Assembly (NCBI GenBank): GCA_046262595.1
Contig: JBHEMM010000016.1
Location: forward strand, 1 to 15,321
Source: Vulcanimicrobiaceae bacterium
Lineage (GTDB): Bacteria > Vulcanimicrobiota > Vulcanimicrobiia > Vulcanimicrobiales > Vulcanimicrobiaceae
Direction of reading: 5' to 3'
DNA length: 15,321 bases
Shown: positions 6,416-15,117 of the stretch, piece after piece
Numbering within the stretch: position 1 is the first letter of the stretch
How the letters are laid out: the number at the start of each line of letters is the position of its first letter
Notes under the pieces: generated by a model
The model's database searches: none
The model's input: the letters and a program-made list of their open reading frames with translations, nothing else
Told to the model about the DNA's origin: nothing
Made by a program: the position numbers and the translations under genes

Positions 6416-6477
6416 ATTCGCGGAGTTTTCGCTTAGGCAGGAGTAGCGGCCTCGCGAGACGGTGAAGTGACCCGGTG

Positions 6478-7398
6478 ATGCATATGTCCGATCGGGGTTC
6501 AACGGATTACGAGCTGCTCGAAAAGCAGCTCGTGGGACTGCTTGAGGACGAGCGCAGCTTTCTTGCCAACGCGTCGAACTTCGCCGCCTTCGTGTTCACC
6601 TCACTGCCGGCAATCAACTGGGCCGGCTTTTATTTTCCTCATCCCGATGCGCTCGTGCTCGGACCGTTCGGCGGCCGCCCGGCGCGTTCGCGCCTGCCGC
6701 GCGGCCGCGGCGTGTGCGGCAAAGCATTCGCGGCCGGCCGCACGATCGTCGTCGACGACGTCACGCAATTCGACGATCACATCGCATGCGATTCCGCCTC
6801 GCGTTCCGAGATCGTCATACCGCTTCTCAAGGACGGCGCGATCTACGGCGTGTTCGATCTCGACGCGCCGATCGAGTCGCGCTTTTCCGCTGGGGATCGC
6901 GCGGCGCTCGAGCGGTTCGTACGGCGCTTTTTGGAATTCACGCCGGTGCCCGAGCAGTACCGTACGCCGCTCGAGGGCGGCGCGCACATCGGCGAGCGTA
7001 TCGATATTCAAACCTGCCGCGATCATCACACGGTGCTGCAATATCTTCTCGAGGACCTCGAGGCGGCGACCGATCCGCAAAAGCTCGCCGAGCTGCTGTC
7101 CCGCTTCAAAAACGTGCTGCTGGCACATCTTCGCCTGGAAGACGATTGGCTCTACCCGCGCCTGCTCAAAAGCGAAAACGAGATCGTCCGACAGAAAGCG
7201 CACACGTATCGCGAGGCGATGGGCGGCCTCCGTCAAACGTTTTTGACGCTATGGACGGCATGGTCGCCGGCCGGTGCGATCGCGGCGGATCCCCGCGCGT
7301 TCCGTTCCGATTGGACGGCATTCGCCCAGCGGCTGGGCGAACGAATGCACGCGGAAGATACGGATCTTTACCTCGCGGCAAACACGGATCTCAACTGA
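6478..7398 (+). CDS. fRMsr/MsrC-like GAF domain fused to a C-terminal hemerythrin/HHE-like domain
   Basis: N half: LANASNFAA, NWAGFY, LVLGPF, GRGVCG, FDDHIACDSASRSEIVIPL, GVFDLDAP. C half: DHH..LLAHLRLEDDWLYPRL..RMHAEDTDLY. Start could be 6475, 6478 or 6484. Confidence 0.85.
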   Translation: MHMSDRGSTDYELLEKQLVGLLEDERSFLANASNFAAFVFTSLPAINWAGFYFPHPDALVLGPFGGRPARSRLPRGRGVCGKAFAAGRTIVVDDVTQFDDHIACDSASRSEIVIPLLKDGAIYGVFDLDAPIESRFSAGDRAALERFVRRFLEFTPVPEQYRTPLEGGAHIGERIDIQTCRDHHTVLQYLLEDLEAATDPQKLAELLSRFKNVLLAHLRLEDDWLYPRLLKSENEIVRQKAHTYREAMGGLRQTFLTLWTAWSPAGAIAADPRAFRSDWTAFAQRLGERMHAEDTDLYLAANTDLN

Positions 7399-7859: not shown

Positions 7860-9044
7860 ATGAGCATTTTACGGAAGTATCTGGCTTTGGCGGCCGTCGT
7901 TTCTTCGCTGGGACTGACCGCTTGCGGCGGCGCAGCGCCGGGCAGCACGCTGCCCGTCAACGGCAACAGCACCACGCAGCCGGCCGCCCAGCAAACGGAA
8001 GACGCGATCGACACGGCAAACGCCGTCGGCGCGCCCCTTACCGATATCAGCACTTACAACGACGCGATTGCCGGGCCGGCGTCGTCCGGATTCGTCAAGG
8101 GCGCAGGCCCCGCTGCAAATGCGGCCGGCTCCGGCGCCTGCACGAACGGCGTCGAGTTCTTCGTTCCGGACAAGAACGCGGACGCAAACTCGACCGAACG
8201 CATCGCGTTCTACGACGACGCGTGTACGCAGATCGCACGCGACGCCGTCCGCATCGTGTCCGCCGGCGCGCCCGGATCGGAAATCGTGCAGAGAACCGTT
8301 CATTTGTACGCGATGAACGAGCCGTCCACGCCGGAAGCGGTTCGCGCGGAGTCGGTTGTCTACTCCAACGCGCAGTTCGACCAGTACGGATATCCGGTTC
8401 TCTCGTCGGGTTTCGACCGCGTGCATACGGGAAGCTTGACCCTCGGCGGAGTTCGCACGATCGACGCTGACGGCGAGCTTTCGGTAAGCGCGAGCAGCAG
8501 CAACGTGTCGAACTTCTGCAGCGATTCCGCTGGCTTTAACGCGACCGGGAATCTGAGCGCGAACGAAACGTTCGGCTGGCAGAGCTCGAATCCGGGCGGC
8601 ACGCGTACGGTCAACGGCGACGGCAGCGTGACGTGGTCGCTGACACGCACCGGCACAGCGTTCACGGCTGCTATCGGCGCACTTTCCATTCAAACGGGCG
8701 CGCAGAACACGGCATGCCCCGTTTCGACGCCGATGTTCACGCTTGCGGGCGGTTCGGCGAAAGGCACCTACACCATCCCGATCGACGCGACGTACAAACA
8801 CGGTATTCTCACGAACCTGACCATCGCAAATGCGGCACTCGTGAACGGCGATACGCTGAACGTCTCCACGAACGGCGGCGTCGCACCGAGCGATCCGCAC
8901 TTCATCAGCGGTACGCTCAGCAGCGGCGCCGGCACGATCGCAACGTTCAACGTCGACGCGTTCGGTGACGGATCGCTCGTCGTGAAGGCGAGCGGAAAAG
9001 TGTACGCGATGATCGACTGGCACGTGGTGAAGGCGGCGTCGTAA
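7860..9044 (+). CDS. Hypothetical lipoprotein, rich in Thr/Gly/Asn/Ser, probably beta-strand rich
   Basis: ATG 7860 follows AGGGAG; signal peptide MSILRKYLALAAVVSSLGLTA-C with lipobox LTAC; no family recognised. Confidence 0.8.
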   Translation: MSILRKYLALAAVVSSLGLTACGGAAPGSTLPVNGNSTTQPAAQQTEDAIDTANAVGAPLTDISTYNDAIAGPASSGFVKGAGPAANAAGSGACTNGVEFFVPDKNADANSTERIAFYDDACTQIARDAVRIVSAGAPGSEIVQRTVHLYAMNEPSTPEAVRAESVVYSNAQFDQYGYPVLSSGFDRVHTGSLTLGGVRTIDADGELSVSASSSNVSNFCSDSAGFNATGNLSANETFGWQSSNPGGTRTVNGDGSVTWSLTRTGTAFTAAIGALSIQTGAQNTACPVSTPMFTLAGGSAKGTYTIPIDATYKHGILTNLTIANAALVNGDTLNVSTNGGVAPSDPHFISGTLSSGAGTIATFNVDAFGDGSLVVKASGKVYAMIDWHVVKAAS

Positions 9045-9086: not shown

Positions 9087-9527
9087 CTACGTTGCCGTCG
9101 AGCTTTCTTTTTTTTCCTGGCCTTCTTCCAGATCGATCAGATCGGTCCACGTACGGGCCGAGTCGTTTCCCGGATCGATGCGTTCGAGTTCGTCGCAGAA
9201 CTGACGGTGTTCTTGTTCCCCTTGCGGCTCGTTGTTCTCAACCCACGCGTTCATGCGTTCGATCTTCTCGCGCTCCGGCCGCACGAGCTCGTGAATCCAC
9301 TCCAAGATGCCCGCGTCATCGCGCGCAGTGCGGACCGCGTCTAAGAACTCGTCTTCCGTAACGCCGAGTGTGTTGAAGAGCTTGAGGTTGAAGCGGCAGC
9401 CGTAGTACACGTAAGAGCCAAGCGTTCCGCCGAGCTGGGCGCGCGCCTTATCGACGGCGCGCGCTAAAATCGAGATTCCGTCGAGTTGCTCGCGGGGGCT
9501 GCGAGGATACTCTTTTGTGAGGTTCAT
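9087..9527 (-). CDS. DUF5069-like protein
   Basis: MNLTKEYPRSPREQLDGISILARAVDKARAQLGGTLGSYVY..C.F...LF..LGV...EF..AV..WTDLIDLEEG matches my recollection of DUF5069. Start is 9527 or 9536. Confidence 0.75.
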   Translation of the reverse strand: MNLTKEYPRSPREQLDGISILARAVDKARAQLGGTLGSYVYYGCRFNLKLFNTLGVTEDEFLDAVRTARDDAGILEWIHELVRPEREKIERMNAWVENNEPQGEQEHRQFCDELERIDPGNDSARTWTDLIDLEEGQEKKESSTAT

Positions 9528-9655
9528 GCCCGCCATGTTCCCGCTTTTGCGCGCCACGCGCGCCCGATAGGACGAAGGGGTAGCAACAAGGGGCGAACGC
9601 GCCTTGGGGAGCGTACGTTAGACCGTCGTACGGCACAGCGGGGTGTCGTATGGTG

Positions 9656-9684
9656 TTCTTGCCGGTCAGCGACCGGCAAGGAGG
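9656..9684 (+). promoter_or_regulatory. Hairpin overlapping the RBS (AAGGAGG 9678-9684) of the precursor ORF
   Basis: Perfect inverted repeat CTTGCCGGTC-AGC-GACCGGCAAG (9658-9680), extendable by 2 bp. Confidence 0.7.
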
Positions 9685-9688
9685 ACCT

Positions 9689-9826
9689 ATGTACGAAGCA
9701 CCTCACGTCATTGCAACGTTCGACGCCGGCGAACTCCTAGGCGAAGCTTATGGGGGCAACCCCGGTTGCGGCAATGAAGGCAATGGCTTACCTGTCGGCA
9801 ACGGCAGCTGTCACAGCGTCGTGTGA
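9689..9826 (+). CDS. Putative RiPP precursor peptide, 45 aa (absent from the ORF track)
   Basis: AAGGAGG-acct-ATG; MYEAPHVIATFDAGELLGEAYGGNPGCGNEGNGLPVGNGSCHSVV*; YxxP leader motif; first gene of a cluster that encodes a PqqD/RRE protein. Confidence 0.85.
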   Translation: MYEAPHVIATFDAGELLGEAYGGNPGCGNEGNGLPVGNGSCHSVV

Positions 9827-10721
9827 CGCACCTGGGGCGCATCAGAAAGGTGCGTCCCACAGTGCGGCCTCTGGCTACTTTACCCTAGGCCGCATCGGCT
9901 TAGCGTTTCAAACGCGGGACGCCTTGAGCCAAGCACTCGCTTGCCGCGCCTTCGCGCCGCTAAGCTGCCGCACGACGCTGCCGGCCGAACTGCATCATGC
10001 GGAAATTTTTCCGACCGCCGCAGGGCTGACCGGTCGTTTTAACGGCGTCGAGCGCCGGTACGCGATGGCCGGCGATCCGTTCGGCGCGGCATTCGACGCC
10101 GTGCGCGACGTCTTTGCGCAATTCGCCGCAACGGCGTCTGGTGACGGCGCGTATCACGGCGCGACCGTTGCAATCGCCGGCGCAGGAACCGTACTTCTCG
10201 GCGACGCAACCGCCGGAAAAACGCTGCTCGCACTCCATCTCACCGCGATGGGCGGCTGCTTTTACGGCGATGAAACGTTTTTGTTCGACGGCGAGAACCG
10301 CGTCGTGCGGGCGATGCCGCGCCTGCCCGCGCTGCGCGAACCAGCCCTAGCGCTTTTACCCGACCAAGCGATGCGTCGAGCCGTCGAGGGGGCGTTGAAC
10401 GTCGCTGCGCGCCCGGGAGGACGCTTGTACTACGCGCTCGAGCCGCACGAGCTCTGCGGCATTGCGCCCGACCCCTCGCCCCTGCCGCTGAAAAACGTTA
10501 TTCTGCTGCACGGCCGTGCACGCCATACGCGGTTGGAGCGTCTAACGGTAAACGGCTTGCTCGCCGCGTTCGTGCGCCGCTCGTACGTTAAGCCGGCGGA
10601 TCTGCGCGCGCTTGGACGGATACGCGCCGCATTGCATGGCGTGCGCGGATACCGTTTGATTGCCGGAGCGCCCGCGCAGACAGCACAACTGATCGTAAAG
10701 GAGCTTACGCGATGCACGTAA
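9750..10721 (+). CDS. HPr kinase-related P-loop protein 1 (start codon uncertain)
   Basis: YHGATVAIAGAGTVLLGDATAGKTLLALHLTAMGGCFYGDE shows the His...Walker A...DE pattern of HprK-like kinases; later PLPLKNVILL. Confidence 0.8.
   Translation: MGATPVAAMKAMAYLSATAAVTASCDAPGAHQKGASHSAASGYFTLGRIGLAFQTRDALSQALACRAFAPLSCRTTLPAELHHAEIFPTAAGLTGRFNGVERRYAMAGDPFGAAFDAVRDVFAQFAATASGDGAYHGATVAIAGAGTVLLGDATAGKTLLALHLTAMGGCFYGDETFLFDGENRVVRAMPRLPALREPALALLPDQAMRRAVEGALNVAARPGGRLYYALEPHELCGIAPDPSPLPLKNVILLHGRARHTRLERLTVNGLLAAFVRRSYVKPADLRALGRIRAALHGVRGYRLIAGAPAQTAQLIVKELTRCT
9825..9858 (+). other. Stem-loop directly after the precursor ORF
   Basis: GGGGCGCATC-AGAAA-GGTGCGTCCC, or alternatively GACGCACCT (9825-9833) pairing with AGGTGCGTC (9848-9856); no U-tract. 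Confidence 0.65.
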
Positions 10722-11608
10722 TCTCCGCGCGCGAACTGCAACGCGGAGGCGACATGGCGCATCTGCGGCAAGGCGCGCCGCAATCGGTTGCGCTTCGCAT
10801 CGCGCAGATTGGCGTCCGCATTGAAACCGCCGTTCCGGGCCTTGCTGCGGAACTTGCATTGCGTTATGCCGGTCATTTGGACGAGCGGGCGCCGGACTTC
10901 GTTTACCGCATCTTCCCCTCACCGCAAGGTTACGCGTTCTGGTGCGATCACGACGGCGCGTGGCAATGGAAAGCCGGTTCTCTGCCGCTGGATGCGATCG
11001 CATTTCTCGCCGATGCCGCTATGCTCTCGGCGCTCGTGCACTTCGATCCGCTTCTCGCTTCGGTGCATGCAGCCGCCGTCGCCGCGCACGGCTGCGCTGC
11101 GGCCATCGCCGGAGACTCGACTGCCGGAAAAACAACGACGCTGCTGGCGTGCGCGCGCGCCGGACTGCAAGTCTATTCGGACGAACGGGCGTTGGTGCGC
11201 CAAGGGATCGTCCATTCATTTTTGCGCCGCTGCTCGGTGCGTCCGGACGGGCGCAGCCGCTTGCTGGCCGACGACGACGCCGACGCACTGGCCCACGCGA
11301 TGCATGCCCGCGGCGATATTGCGCTTGCAGCGGTGTTCGGTGAAGCCGCTGTCGCACCGCCGCTTGCGCTGCGTGCACTGTTCGTGCTCGACGGCTATGC
11401 GGCGCGGCCGTTCATCGAACCGATCGACGCAACCGCGGCGCTGCCGGCCGTTTCGCGGTGGTTCGACACTTGCGGCGGCGCGATCGAACGCACCGCGCGT
11501 GCGCTGGGCCTGCTGCGTTCCCTGCACTGTTTCCGTTTGACGCTGGGTACGCCGCGCGAGAGCGCTCTTGCCGTGCGTGAAACATTAGAGCAGCTCGCAT
11601 GGCGTTAA
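10712..11608 (+). CDS. HPr kinase-related P-loop protein 2
   Basis: VHAAAVAAHGCAAAIAGDSTAGKTTTLLACARAGLQVYSDERALV; PLALRALFVL; AAGGAG RBS at 10698-10703; overlaps the previous stop. Confidence 0.85.
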   Translation: MHVISARELQRGGDMAHLRQGAPQSVALRIAQIGVRIETAVPGLAAELALRYAGHLDERAPDFVYRIFPSPQGYAFWCDHDGAWQWKAGSLPLDAIAFLADAAMLSALVHFDPLLASVHAAAVAAHGCAAAIAGDSTAGKTTTLLACARAGLQVYSDERALVRQGIVHSFLRRCSVRPDGRSRLLADDDADALAHAMHARGDIALAAVFGEAAVAPPLALRALFVLDGYAARPFIEPIDATAALPAVSRWFDTCGGAIERTARALGLLRSLHCFRLTLGTPRESALAVRETLEQLAWR

Positions 11609-13113
11609 CCGGCAACGCAAGCGCAACGACGAGAGCCGCATTGGTCCGGATGGCCGCAAATGCTGCCGCTCACGCGCGCGTCGTGATGCGCGGCGGCAGC
11701 ATGGCTCCCGACCTGCGCGAAGGAATGACGTTAGAGATCGCTCCGCCGCCCGAACGCATTCGTCGCGGCGCCATCCTTGTATTCTGCGCCGGCGCGCGTC
11801 TGGTCGCGCATCGCGTCGTTCGGGTTGAAGGTGCGGTCGCTGTCTGCTCGGGCGACGCGCAGCCCGAATGTATTGAGCGGGTGCAGCGCGGCGAAATCGT
11901 CGGCGTGGTTCGCGCAGTGTTCACGCCGGGCGGCGCCCGCGTCGACAATCTGGCGTTTCGCATGCGCGGCAATGCGCGCTCGCTTTCTCACCGCGTCCGT
12001 GTGTTTGCATCGCGAGCGCTTCCCCACCGGCGCACGCGTGCGTATGCGATGCTCGTGCGCGCGATGTCCTGCGCGGTCCGCAGCGACGATGCGGGGCTGC
12101 AGGCCGCCGTTGAAGCGGCGGCGCCGTGGCGGCTTGAAACCATTGCGCGGCGCCACCGTTGCGCTGCAGCGCTGTGCGCCGCGCTGCGGCGCACCGGCGG
12201 CGAGCACGCGGCTGAGCTCGCGCGCCGTCTAAGCGCCGATGCGTGGGCCGCAGCCGGACGTGCCCGGCGGTTGCGTTCCCAATTAGAAAGCGTTCTCGCC
12301 GTGCTGCGCGATGCCGGGATCCCATGCGCCGTCCTCAAAGGCGCCGCGCGGCTGCTGCAAGGAGACGAGTGGAGCGAACGCACCGAATCGCAAGACCTCG
12401 ATCTGCTGGTGGCCCCGCATGACGTCGAACGCGCCGCTTCGGCGTTGCGCGCTTGCGGTTACGCCCACCGCTGTTCGCAGGCGGAACTGCAGTATTATTC
12501 GGCGGCGCATCACCATGCCGAACCGCTTTACCCGCCGGGCGAAGGCGTGCCGGTCGAGCTGCATCGCTCGCTCGAGCTGGCCGAACTCTCGCTTCCGAAG
12601 ACGTGGAACGATTTGTTTGCGCTCTTTACGCCGCTGCGCGAGGGCGTGTATGCGTTGGGACCGGCGGGCAACGCGCTGCACCTCGCCATTCACGCGATGC
12701 GCCGCCCCGCGCTTCGCGAGATCGTTTTGCTCGCACGGCAGTTGCAGCGTCTGGATGCGTATGACACTGCTCGTCTGCGCGGCATTCTCGCACGCGAGCA
12801 CCGCTTTGCCATACGTCTGCACGGTGCCATCGCGTTCGCGGCGCAGCTTGCCGGAGTACCCTGGAACGTGTCCGCGCGCGCGGAGCACTATTCGCGATGG
12901 ATGCAAGCCCGCGAAGATTTGCCGCTGCCGATGCGAGCACGCACGCACTGCCTGGACGAATATTTCGGCGCGCAGGAAGGCGCCGTACAGGCTGCCTTTG
13001 CAGCAGCCTTCGAAGGCGCAACGCGCGCGCGGGGCCGGCAGACCGTCCGCGCTATCGCACGCCTGGGCGCGGCATGCGCGAGCGCGATTTACCTGCGTCT
13101 CACGCCTGGATAA
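11599..13113 (+). CDS. Fusion of an S24/S26 (signal-peptidase-like) peptidase domain and a nucleotidyltransferase (NTP_transf_5-like) domain
   Basis: N-terminal: MRGGSMAPDLREG..GAILVF..LVAHRVV..SGDA..V..GEIVGVV. C-terminal: AGIPCAVLKGAA..RTESQDLDLLV..A..AL..CGY..HH..PVELH..HLAIHA. Confidence 0.85.
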   Translation: MALTGNASATTRAALVRMAANAAAHARVVMRGGSMAPDLREGMTLEIAPPPERIRRGAILVFCAGARLVAHRVVRVEGAVAVCSGDAQPECIERVQRGEIVGVVRAVFTPGGARVDNLAFRMRGNARSLSHRVRVFASRALPHRRTRAYAMLVRAMSCAVRSDDAGLQAAVEAAAPWRLETIARRHRCAAALCAALRRTGGEHAAELARRLSADAWAAAGRARRLRSQLESVLAVLRDAGIPCAVLKGAARLLQGDEWSERTESQDLDLLVAPHDVERAASALRACGYAHRCSQAELQYYSAAHHHAEPLYPPGEGVPVELHRSLELAELSLPKTWNDLFALFTPLREGVYALGPAGNALHLAIHAMRRPALREIVLLARQLQRLDAYDTARLRGILAREHRFAIRLHGAIAFAAQLAGVPWNVSARAEHYSRWMQAREDLPLPMRARTHCLDEYFGAQEGAVQAAFAAAFEGATRARGRQTVRAIARLGAACASAIYLRLTPG

Positions 13114-13357
13114 GTCCCAACAACTCGAACTGCTGCAGAACCGCCGTCACATCTTCGAGCGCGCACGGCGCGGCACCGTCTCCCTCGAGTCTTTTTGCGA
13201 TCGCAGCCGCGTCCGTACGCCCGTCGCATGCCTGTAGAACCACGCCTGCTGTACGGTTGAGCACATGGATCTTTCGGACACGCGTATCGTGAACGAGCAC
13301 GTCGTCGCCCGTGTCTTGAATTTCCAACGCTTCGCTGCGTTCAGGTGACGCTTTCAT
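13100..13357 (-). CDS. Stand-alone PqqD-family RiPP recognition element (RRE)
   Basis: 85 aa; DDVLVHD..KIHVLNRTAGVVLQACDG.TDAAAIAKRL..DVTAVLQQFELLGLI; AAAGGA RBS. Confidence 0.88.
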   Translation of the reverse strand: MKASPERSEALEIQDTGDDVLVHDTRVRKIHVLNRTAGVVLQACDGRTDAAAIAKRLEGDGAAPCALEDVTAVLQQFELLGLIQA

Positions 13358-13372
13358 GGTGTGCGGTTCCTT

Positions 13373-14170
13373 TTAATAAGCGGAGAGTGAGCCGTCGCGC
13401 TTTGCGTGCGTGATAGCAGCGTGCAGCGCGTAGATGCCGGCGGGCAGTAAAATGAGCGTCGCGGCGGCAAGCCACAGCGCATCGCCCTGAACGGGAGAAA
13501 CGCCGCCGCCCGCCATGGCGGTGCGCGCGCCGCGCAGCGTATGTGTGAGCGGCAGCAGCCAAGAAACGTATTGCAGCGGTTCGGGCAGCAGCGCGACGGG
13601 GAAGAGCACCCCGGTCAAAAGGGTTGCGGCACTGCCGACGAAAAACGTGGAAGGCGCACCTTGCTTGAACGCAATCACGGCAGCGGCGCCGAGCGCACCC
13701 ATGGACGCTGCGCACGCCCCGCCGAGCGCGAGAAACAGCGCGAGCAGCGGCGCATCAACTTGCGCGATCCGTAAGCCGAAAATCATCGCTACGCCGATAT
13801 ACGCCGCGCCTTGCAGCAGCGCAAAGCAGATGGGCCATGCGGCCGAAGCGAAGACGATCGCGAGTACGGGGGCGGGGGAGCCAAGCATCGGCTCGAGTGT
13901 TCCGGCAACTTGGTCCCGGCGCAACGCCGCAGGAACGCACTGCAGCGCGACGTTGAGCACCAGCATGAAAGCCAGATTCACGACGACATAGCTGAAATAG
14001 TCGATGTGGCGGCCACCGGCGTCGAGTGCGGCGTGCGGATTCACGATGCGCGCGAGGAAAGCGAAACCCGCAACGGTAAGCGCTACGCTTGCGAAAGGCG
14101 TAATCAGCGTCGAAGGATACGAGAGCGCTAGTCGCACGTCGCGTTCCACGAACGCACGCAGCAGTGTCAC
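13373..14170 (-). CDS. ABC-2 type exporter permease
   Basis: About 6 transmembrane segments; RRDQVAGTLEPMLGSP, LLTGVLFPVALLPEPLQYVSWLLPLTHTLRGAR, AKRDGSLSAY. Confidence 0.93.
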   Translation of the reverse strand: MTLLRAFVERDVRLALSYPSTLITPFASVALTVAGFAFLARIVNPHAALDAGGRHIDYFSYVVVNLAFMLVLNVALQCVPAALRRDQVAGTLEPMLGSPAPVLAIVFASAAWPICFALLQGAAYIGVAMIFGLRIAQVDAPLLALFLALGGACAASMGALGAAAVIAFKQGAPSTFFVGSAATLLTGVLFPVALLPEPLQYVSWLLPLTHTLRGARTAMAGGGVSPVQGDALWLAAATLILLPAGIYALHAAITHAKRDGSLSAY

Positions 14171-15117
14171 CGGCTCGCCTCATGCACGAAGAGATCTTCG
14201 GCATCGGGTGCACAGGACGTAATCGATTTCACGCGGCTTTCGCCGTGCAGGATCTCTCGCAAAAAGCCGCTCACGCTATCCGGCTGCGCTTGCACGTCGG
14301 CGATCATTTCCGCACCGGCGGAAGACGGCCGCAGTTCGATATCGCCGAACCGCGAGGCACGCAGCGCGAGCGTTGTGTCGATGCGATCGAAGTCGACGCG
14401 ATAGCGCATCGTTTTGACGAAACGGCGGCTCAGCGCCGCAGGCGTGTCTATTCCGATCGTGCGCCCGCCCGAAAGCAGCACGATGCGATCGCAAACGTTC
14501 CACGCCTCTTCGAGTAAATTCGTCGCAAGCACAATGGTCTTGCCGGCACGCTTCGCGAGATCGTCGCGCACGAACGTGCGGAGCATCTGCGCGTGAAGCG
14601 GGTCGACGGCGCGCGTCGGTTCGTCCAGAAGCAAGATTTGCGCTTCATGCAGCAAGGCACGCGCGATGGAGAGCCGCTGACGCGTGCCGGTCGAGCAGCG
14701 GCTGTAACGCCGCCCGCCCACCGCGGTCAGATCGGTGATGGCGAGAACCGCATCGACGCGCGCCTTCAAGGCGCAGCCGTGCAAACCGTAGAGCCGCGCA
14801 AAAAACTCGAGATTCTCGCGCATAGAAAGACGGAAATAAAAGCTCCGGTCCGCGGCACTGCACAGTCCGACGATGCGCTGCGCCGCTCGCGCCGTCAGCG
14901 GCGCACCGTCGAAGAGGATTTCGCCACGGTCGGGTTTGAGCAGTCCGGCGATAGCGTGCAGAATCGTCGTCTTTCCGGCTCCGTTGGCGCCGAGCAGACC
15001 AACGACTTCTCCGCGCTCGACGGTAAAGCCGATATCTTCGAGCACGGGCACGCGCTCGCCCGGGCGCAGCCAATGCCCCTTGCGAAATGCCTTTCCCAGC
15101 CCACGAACGTGCAGCAC
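14167..15117 (-). CDS. ABC exporter ATP-binding protein
   Basis: Walker A GANGAGKTT, signature CSTGTRQRLSIARAL, Walker B LLLDEPT; GTGA overlap with the permease. Confidence 0.95.
   Translation of the reverse strand: MLHVRGLGKAFRKGHWLRPGERVPVLEDIGFTVERGEVVGLLGANGAGKTTILHAIAGLLKPDRGEILFDGAPLTARAAQRIVGLCSAADRSFYFRLSMRENLEFFARLYGLHGCALKARVDAVLAITDLTAVGGRRYSRCSTGTRQRLSIARALLHEAQILLLDEPTRAVDPLHAQMLRTFVRDDLAKRAGKTIVLATNLLEEAWNVCDRIVLLSGGRTIGIDTPAALSRRFVKTMRYRVDFDRIDTTLALRASRFGDIELRPSSAGAEMIADVQAQPDSVSGFLREILHGESRVKSITSCAPDAEDLFVHEASR

Follow-up and report, generated by a model that had tools for sequence, protein, structure and literature searches.

Results

Gene content of the locus

The window analyzed here is a stretch of 15,321 nucleotides, bases 1-15321 of contig C16 (48,567 bases) of genome G000, a member of the Vulcanimicrobiaceae whose assembly is 89.7% complete. 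It carries a cluster with the look of a system for making a peptide that is synthesized on ribosomes and modified after translation (RiPP). A small open reading frame (ORF) heads genes for two HprK-like kinases and for a fusion of an S26-type peptidase to a nucleotidyltransferase (NTase), and genes for a stand-alone RiPP recognition element (RRE) and an ATP-binding cassette (ABC) exporter converge on them from the opposite strand. Every one of these genes is found where an earlier reading, made from the letters of the window alone (the sequence-only reading), had placed it. The start of the small ORF, which that reading had set at 9656, lies instead at 9689, behind a Shine-Dalgarno sequence, AAGGAGG, read from the sequence at 9678..9684 on the forward strand.

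The precursor gene (9689..9826, forward strand) encodes 45 residues, the leader MYEAPHVIATFDAGELLGEAYG followed by the core GNPGCGNEGNGLPVGNGSCHSVV. The predicted leader of 22 residues (9689..9754) contains a YxxPxV motif of the RRE-binding kind and then the conserved pattern FDA-xx-LL-x-EA-x-G, ending in A20-Y21-G22. The predicted core of 23 residues (9755..9823) contains Ser40 in the sequence GNGS (codon 9806-9808) and two cysteines, Cys27 and Cys41. Comparison with the copy in genome G004 finds 14 synonymous and 9 non-synonymous codon differences, with 19 of 31 base changes at third positions; judged by this pattern, the gene is under purifying selection and evolves as a coding gene. It is present as a single copy, no other having been found in its own genome.

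Kinase 1, an accessory HprK-like P-loop kinase, is encoded at 9783..10721 on the forward strand and retains H125, GKT and YGDE. Its frame is open from 9750, and its true start is uncertain because the in-frame ATGs (9750, 9774 and 9783) all lie within the precursor gene. A frameshift in this gene was considered and ruled out, as the homolog in G004 holds the same frame. Kinase 2 (10712..11608, forward strand), the core HprK-like kinase, equivalent to LppK of the Bacillota system discussed below, has H119, G139-K140 and D157-E158. The fusion protein of 504 residues (11599..13113, forward strand) has its S26 domain at about residues 15-113 (S34, H71, D86, E93) and its PF14907 domain at about residues 180-420 (D266, D268, E320 and H304-H306). 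Overlaps of 10 nt join kinase 1 to kinase 2 and kinase 2 to the fusion gene. The RRE, of the PqqD family, is encoded at 13100..13357 on the reverse strand, so that the 14-nt overlap with the 3' end of the fusion gene described in the sequence-only reading is exact. Behind it on the same strand are an ABC-2 type permease (13373..14170) and a DrrA-like ABC ATPase (14167..15117).

Several of these assignments come from curated models. PF14907 scores 88.8 bits against the fusion (cut-off 31.2) and PqqD (PF05402) scores 35 bits against the RRE (cut-off 23.4); ABC2_membrane (PF01061, 62.5 bits, on the permease) and ABC_tran (on the ATPase) are both above cut-off. Matches to the kinases and to S24/S26 fall below the curated cut-offs, those of TIGR models in the case of the kinases. 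Profiles of the kinases match HPr kinase structures (E 1e-8), and a profile of the peptidase domain matches SEC11 (E 8e-5), with TIGR02228 at E 1.6e-5, below its cut-off. A scan for promoters and terminators returned matches at chance level only.

Homologous loci in related genomes

Homologs of the fusion protein were found in 36 of 101 relatives, and a profile of the fusion matches 51 of 301 genomes of the phylum at 1e-10; both counts include NTase-only hits, S26-only hits and flagged unpublished genomes. When 185,579 species genomes were scanned for a pattern, 29 loci came up, their titles mostly Vulcanimicrobiota or Eremiobacterota with a few generic or other labels, although such a scan detects close motifs only and is no proof of absence elsewhere. 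A table with one row per cluster lists 34 loci, 31 of them of the window's type (type A); the fusions of the remaining three adjoin the RRE of a second cassette type. The type-A loci include a precursor in 25 of 31, two kinases in 21, a single kinase in 9 and the permease in 22, and in five of the six that lack a precursor the contig stops at the cluster or just upstream of it; the sixth, L050, is a genuine exception. A small ORF comparable to that of the window, which the sequence-only reading had expected beside homologs of the fusion, is thus present in 25 of all 34 loci. In a few genomes the S26 protein is unfused (L100-L102).

Precursor peptides and their cores

The comparison of leaders and cores took in 72 distinct precursors and left flagged genomes aside; because the genomes are related to one another, the significance of the shuffle statistics below is overstated. 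The conserved leader ends 21 residues from its Tyr, with A, V, T or S at position -3 in 72 of 72 and Gly at position -1 in 63, a conservation that is partly circular, as the seed pattern required A/V..G. Signal peptidases follow a (-3,-1) rule, small-x-small, which this leader ending fits. The window's leader is probably cut after A20-Y21-G22; the alternative would be a cut after F11-D12-A13.

The cores are 5-24 residues long and rich in Cys and His. Ser occurs in all 72 (about 61 expected), GS in 40 (shuffle mean 18), and Ser at +3, the position of Ser3 in the Bacillota peptides, in 24 (shuffle mean 12). Exactly two Cys are found in 38 cores against 17 expected, 14 have none, and no core has three or more. 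By these statistics the likely phosphorylation site of the window peptide is Ser40 of GNGS, and Cys27 probably pairs with Cys41 in a disulfide.

The same residues could be read in another way, in which phosphorylation and nucleotidylation only activate Ser, and its elimination, or its displacement by a core Cys, then yields a thioether-bridged, lanthionine-like peptide without LanM or LanKC. Ser in every core, Cys in 58 of 72, and Ser-Cys adjacencies more frequent than in shuffled cores (50 observed, shuffle mean 37) are in keeping with this, as is the invariant His triplet of the NTase, which has no assigned role. The dispersed, hypervariable precursors described below are also reminiscent of prochlorosins. 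But 14 of the cores have no Cys at all, the surplus of cores with exactly two Cys, together with the lack of any with three, suits one disulfide better than Ser-Cys pairing, and the loci contain no lyase or cyclase gene. Moreover, both the Bacillota peptides and phospeptin retained their phosphates (PMC13381572, PMC9259500). Thioether formation is very unlikely on this balance.

A profile of the leader finds matches in 26 of 101 relatives, up to 8 per genome (flagged genomes included). Twenty regions were chosen from the extra matches; in 16 of them 22 precursors in all were found, and these stretches contained no kinase, no fusion and no type-A RRE. In G018, a genome in one contig, two precursors lie in the cluster near 1.76 Mb and three more at 0.06, 0.57 and 1.98 Mb, and for these five precursors one fusion gene and one kinase-2 gene were found. 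No common neighbor of the dispersed precursors was found; their neighbors differ. Some dispersed precursors stand directly behind a 2OG-Fe dioxygenase gene or beside a methyltransferase gene or a DUF6065 gene, and a JmjC gene heads one kinase pair (L153:4091-5029, L159:6405-7389, L150, L152, L161, L174); extra tailoring by such enzymes is possible. Copper-related neighbors, namely multicopper oxidase, oxidase subunits (named by eye) and cupredoxin, also recur near precursors (L041, L053, L144). Together with the His/Cys-rich cores they give a weak hint of metal binding.

The fusion protein, the RRE and the kinases

Across 18 homologs of the fusion, S34 and H71, which stand in SEC11-like register, are invariant or near-invariant, D86 is invariant and E93 is near-invariant; the third catalytic residue of the S26 domain may be Glu93 rather than Asp. 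By reading of the sequence the domain lacks a membrane anchor. A search of plasmids with the S26 domain gave no match, and a search with the same domain otherwise gave 10 close matches and then a broad unnamed family without usable taxonomy. The NTase domain keeps its DxD..E residues intact (D266, D268, E320) along with the invariant His triplet. An AF2 model of the fusion has a pLDDT of 90.7. Foldseek found no match to this model at E 0.001; a wider structural search aligned the modeled NTase domain to MenT1, ANT(2'')-Ia and TM1012 at Z 12-13 (Z 12.8-13.2, root-mean-square deviation 3.2-3.3 and 158-177 residues aligned for the ANT(2'')-Ia/MenT-type fold) and the modeled peptidase domain to S26/LexA folds (Z 8-10). 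The same NTase fold has been proposed for PsmN, whose DxD is required (PMC6993621).

A full-length profile of the fusion has 64 matches, 11 of which cover at least 85% of the query. By eye, P0016 and P0019 (of which P0019 is named Blastocatellia) seem to be independent fusions of S26 to an NTase. At L173:6186-8258, an NTP_transf_5 domain is joined not to S26 but to a C-terminal region of HEAT repeats; a kinase and an RRE accompany it, and that stretch yielded no precursor. A profile of the RRE finds only lasso B1 and PqqD proteins in PDB, the best solved relatives being TfuB1 and TbiB1, and the single RRE sequence finds no match there.

A quick tree of 65 kinases sets a kinase-2 clade (37 rows, support 99) apart from a looser kinase-1 group (24 rows, support 89). 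Clusters with a single kinase always have the kinase-2 type. All 14 kinase-2 sequences keep a His ahead of the Walker A motif that is conserved in HprK. In 10 of 12 kinase-1 sequences Tyr stands in its place, although kinase 1 of the window retains the His. Because of this difference, and because single-kinase clusters are all of the kinase-2 type, kinase 2 is likely the primary enzyme and kinase 1 an accessory.

Search for a cyclase, a B2 protease and radical SAM enzymes

The window ends at a 10-N scaffold gap, beyond which C16 continues. An apparent partial tRNA-Thr gene, seen by eye and not called by ARAGORN, is followed by housekeeping genes; the ORFs of at least 170 residues up to position 27,000 are, as named by eye, a sigma factor and rlmB-, cysS-, cysE- and ispD-like genes. 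No lasso cyclase or B2 protease was seen in this part of the contig, the place where the sequence-only reading had proposed to look. The further search of the genome that it proposed likewise found no lasso cyclase and no SPASM domain in the 89.7% of the genome that is present, and a lone B2-like gene that belongs to a separate cassette.

These results bear on whether the locus could be an ordinary tailored lasso peptide cluster whose cyclase and B2 protease are encoded elsewhere, the core forming a ring between G1 and E8. Gly is indeed the first residue of the predicted core and Glu stands at +8, and this incomplete genome does hold a full PF00733 gene (on C9, the only one) and one B2-like gene (on C20). 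The C9 gene, however, lies in a polysaccharide locus and scores 413 bits against TIGR01536 (cut-off 267) and 238 bits against NF033535, under the cut-off of 525; by these scores it is a glutamine-hydrolyzing asparagine synthase (AsnB) rather than a lasso cyclase. Weak PF00733 hits on C31 and C5 are, by eye, MnmA-like and NAD-synthetase-like. The B2-like gene belongs to an operon of its own, with its own RRE. A start with G, S, C or A combined with D or E at positions 7-9 is found in 6 of the 72 cores, the window peptide included, and Thr at -2 in none. No full-length PF00733 gene was found in the five cluster-bearing relatives tested (92-98% complete). The lasso explanation is largely refuted and hardly credible.

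In two of these five relatives a B2 gene was found, both times in the second cassette, and in three (G046, G013 and G045) there are SPASM matches, all of them on other contigs or at a distance from the cluster. G033 (96% complete) yielded no cyclase, B2 or SPASM, and the single contig of G018 no cyclase or SPASM. A scan of 37 loci for CxxxCxxC, aimed at radical S-adenosylmethionine (radical SAM) enzymes, gave one match, HpnJ. Of the 34 tabulated loci none has an AsnB-like gene and two have a B2 gene, both in the second cassette type; by BLAST neither is found in any of the 31 type-A loci. The proposal of the sequence-only reading that the tailoring enzymes make up the whole pathway, with no cyclase, B2 or radical SAM enzyme, agrees with these loci, 25 of which have the precursor.

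A second cassette and other features of the window

The second cassette type, also free of a cyclase, occurs in the window's genome at G000:C20:35597-42546 (L112, L009), with homologs at L079-L085, L105, L106 and L179-L182. Its gene order is RRE, HprK-like kinase, two GT2 glycosyltransferases, B2-like protease, NTP_transf_5 and, by eye, a flippase-like gene. Its RRE has a C-terminal tail with a leader-like WxxPx[I/M/V] motif, and the end S-A-F-D-P-S-I/V-P-L-A/V-E is near-invariant in 16 of 16 sequences; from its sequence this looks like an RRE-fused precursor for a phospho-glycopeptide. In G018, G046 and L074 no more than about 18 kb separates the cassette from the YxxP cluster, an arrangement that echoes the WxxP/YxxP split reported for paeninodin and the Bacillota peptides.

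Elsewhere in the window, positions 2-481 look by eye like the end of a gene for a membrane pyrophosphatase, with an apparent shift of frame near base 350, and a fusion of GAF and hemerythrin domains is encoded between tRNA genes at 6475-7398 on the forward strand. Between the tRNA-Tyr/Gly/Thr genes and the cluster lie a lipoprotein-like ORF (7860-9044, forward strand) and a DUF5069 gene (9087-9557, reverse strand). Neither has a match in any of 30 homologous loci, and for that reason they are not taken as part of the system.

Discussion

The sequence-only reading called this system undescribed. The class has since appeared in print: Popov et al. (Nat Commun, May 2026; PMC13381572) report the linear polyphosphorylated peptides (LPPs) of Bacillota, encoded by LppA/K/B/S/D/N clusters and made by an RRE, an HprK kinase, a SipW-like leader peptidase and an NTP transferase with no cyclase. 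In that paper the peptide receives one to four phosphates on one Ser (Ser3) and is cleaved after F-E-T in an RRE-dependent manner; deletion of lppS blocks processing, and deletion of lppK or the S3A substitution abolishes phosphorylation. LppS, whose S29 and H68 are matched by S34 and H71 of the fusion, is killed by S29A, H68A or D93A, and its cleavage requires LppB (PMC13381572). The roles that the sequence-only reading assigned to the S26 domain as leader peptidase, to the RRE and to the kinase therefore have experimental demonstration in the Bacillota family, and by analogy they may extend to the present one.

The likeness is considerable. Both systems have a YxxPxV leader, a stand-alone RRE, an HprK-like kinase, NTP_transf_5, an exporter, an S26 leader peptidase of archaeal/SipW type with Ser-His-acid residues, and no macrolactam cyclase, and Ser is often at +3 of the core (PMC13381572). 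The differences are equally clear. The LPP leader consensus, YxxPxVLxHQxIxFETxxS (Px9Fx[T/A]), occurs in 0 of 72 precursors here, with only YxxPx[VIL] in common; leaders here are about five residues longer and end in A-x-G; and the LPP transporter is MsbA-like, whereas here a separate ABC-2 permease and DrrA-like ATPase are found (PMC13381572). The fusion of S26 to NTase, two kinases (in 21 of 31 loci), dispersed precursor genes and cores of 5-24 residues rich in Cys and His also set the present system apart. Polysaccharide genes adjoin several homologous loci, as in LPP clusters, but neither these nor lasso genes stand beside the window cluster. LPPs are found in Bacillota, and this system in Vulcanimicrobiota; the paper, with a dataset from 2019, calls LPPs restricted to Bacillota, and its six readable supplements contain no Vulcanimicrobiota or Eremiobacterota names, although fused or related entries may exist elsewhere (PMC13381572). 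By leader motif, transporter class and phylum range, the pathway works like LPP but, judged on its sequences, is not a member of LPP as defined.

Other known systems share parts of this anatomy. Paeninodin and pseudomycoidin (PsmK/PsmN) resemble it in an HprK-like kinase acting on a precursor Ser, the same NTase family with a required DxD, and a discrete RRE; these phosphorylated or phosphoglycosylated lasso peptides differ in having a cyclase, B2 and Thr(-2), and a C-terminal rather than an internal Ser, and they lack the S26 leader peptidase (PMC8498205, PMC6993621). Phospeptin (EmbA/EmbM) of Ca. Eudoremicrobiaceae, marine Eremiobacterota, is likewise a linear, poly-phosphorylated RiPP, but is made by a single lanthipeptide-dehydratase-like maturase acting on Thr, and the accessible text names no HprK kinase, RRE, S26 or NTase (PMC9259500). 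A literature search that covered few subscription journals found no paper on the Vulcanimicrobiota variant.

We think it likely, by analogy, that the cluster encodes a self-contained, cyclase-free RiPP pathway working like the LPP pathway, its product most likely a small exported peptide phosphorylated on serine. The gene anatomy, its conservation, the intact catalytic residues and the failure to find a cyclase or SPASM domain are direct observations; every chemical step that follows is inferred from them. The RRE would bind the YxxPxV leader, as has been shown for LppB. Kinase 2 would phosphorylate a core Ser, most likely Ser40 of GNGS, with the leader still attached, and kinase 1, as accessory, may extend the phosphate or load an extra one. 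The NTase domain would then cap the Ser phosphate. By analogy with PsmN, which is required for the addition of one or two hexoses to the phosphate and gives the only in vivo result for the family (PMC6993621), a hexose or sugar-phosphate is the likeliest cap, though short of an even chance. It is also quite conceivable that the cap is some other group, or that the NTase depends on an outside partner. A nucleoside monophosphate is a weaker candidate, and the extension of the phosphate by one, as claimed in the sequence-only reading, is unproven. The fused S26 domain would cut the RRE-presented leader after A20-Y21-G22. Finally, the ABC-2 pair would export the 23-residue core, with oxidation then closing a Cys27-Cys41 disulfide. 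In relatives, several precursor genes at scattered places on the chromosome would share one enzyme set and so give rise to a small family of peptides, most plausibly signals, metal-binding molecules or competition molecules.

A number of observations weigh against this interpretation. A kinase-1/kinase-2 pair of the window's own subclade lies on C32 of the same genome with no precursor, RRE, S26 or NTase nearby, and the same orphan pair is seen in nine of ten such loci from relatives, the tenth having kinase 2 only; since these pairs stand without the other components, the kinases can have another job. The intact locus L050 has a fusion and exporter with no kinase, RRE or precursor, and the fusions of L055 and L056 belong to the second cassette type. 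The proposed cut site draws on conservation of a leader end already contained, as A/V..G, in the seed pattern, and on the (-3,-1) rule of signal peptidases. In addition, the F-D-A of the leader resembles the F-E-T cleavage site of LPP, the GS serine of the window peptide is at +18 and not at +3, and no effect of deleting lppN could be detected in the LPP study (PMC13381572).

The orphan pair at G000:C32:16358-18443 (L109, L111; in relatives L163-L172) is followed by a conserved hydrophobic ORF of 91-98 residues with no family match. The pair has an extracytoplasmic function (ECF) sigma-like gene on one side and two SCO1/SenC genes on the other, with a gene for a multicopper oxidase close by. 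Vertical retention of the pair in this setting, ahead of what would be a conserved membrane protein, is an argument for a regulatory module, in which the kinases and the NTase would target proteins or use the peptide as an internal switch, with only an incidental place for the exporter. MenT toxins among the nearest folds of the modeled NTase, and a permease homolog not found in 9 of 31 type-A loci, point the same way. The leader/core structure, the RRE, the soluble leader-type peptidase and the permease in the other 22 loci are nevertheless the parts of a system that exports a RiPP, and in Bacillota the homologous system does process its peptide (PMC13381572), which leaves the regulatory module unlikely.

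The export pathway may also have a more elaborate form, in which kinase 2 primes the Ser, kinase 1 makes a pyro- or polyphosphate, the fused NTase adds a nucleotide and the same polypeptide then cuts the leader, one enzyme set serving up to eight hypervariable, scattered precursors. The products would be combinatorial, disulfide-looped peptides with a capped Ser-phosphate. We regard this version as doubtful; if true, it would be a new peptide modification and provide the first defined reaction for PF14907.

The LPP paper leaves the final product and the role of NTP_transf_5 open, LppN having been silent in the heterologous host and the clusters lying among polysaccharide genes (PMC13381572). 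The fusion of the NTase to the leader peptidase ties the NTase to the pathway, and cores of 5-24 residues with an obvious Ser offer dozens of natural substrates, so that the Vulcanimicrobiota system would allow a cleaner test of the role of the NTase. If the interpretation favored here holds, it would extend this chemistry past Bacillota and add features unreported for LPP: a peptidase fused to the NTase, a clade of accessory kinases, cores with two Cys, and precursors dispersed over the genome.

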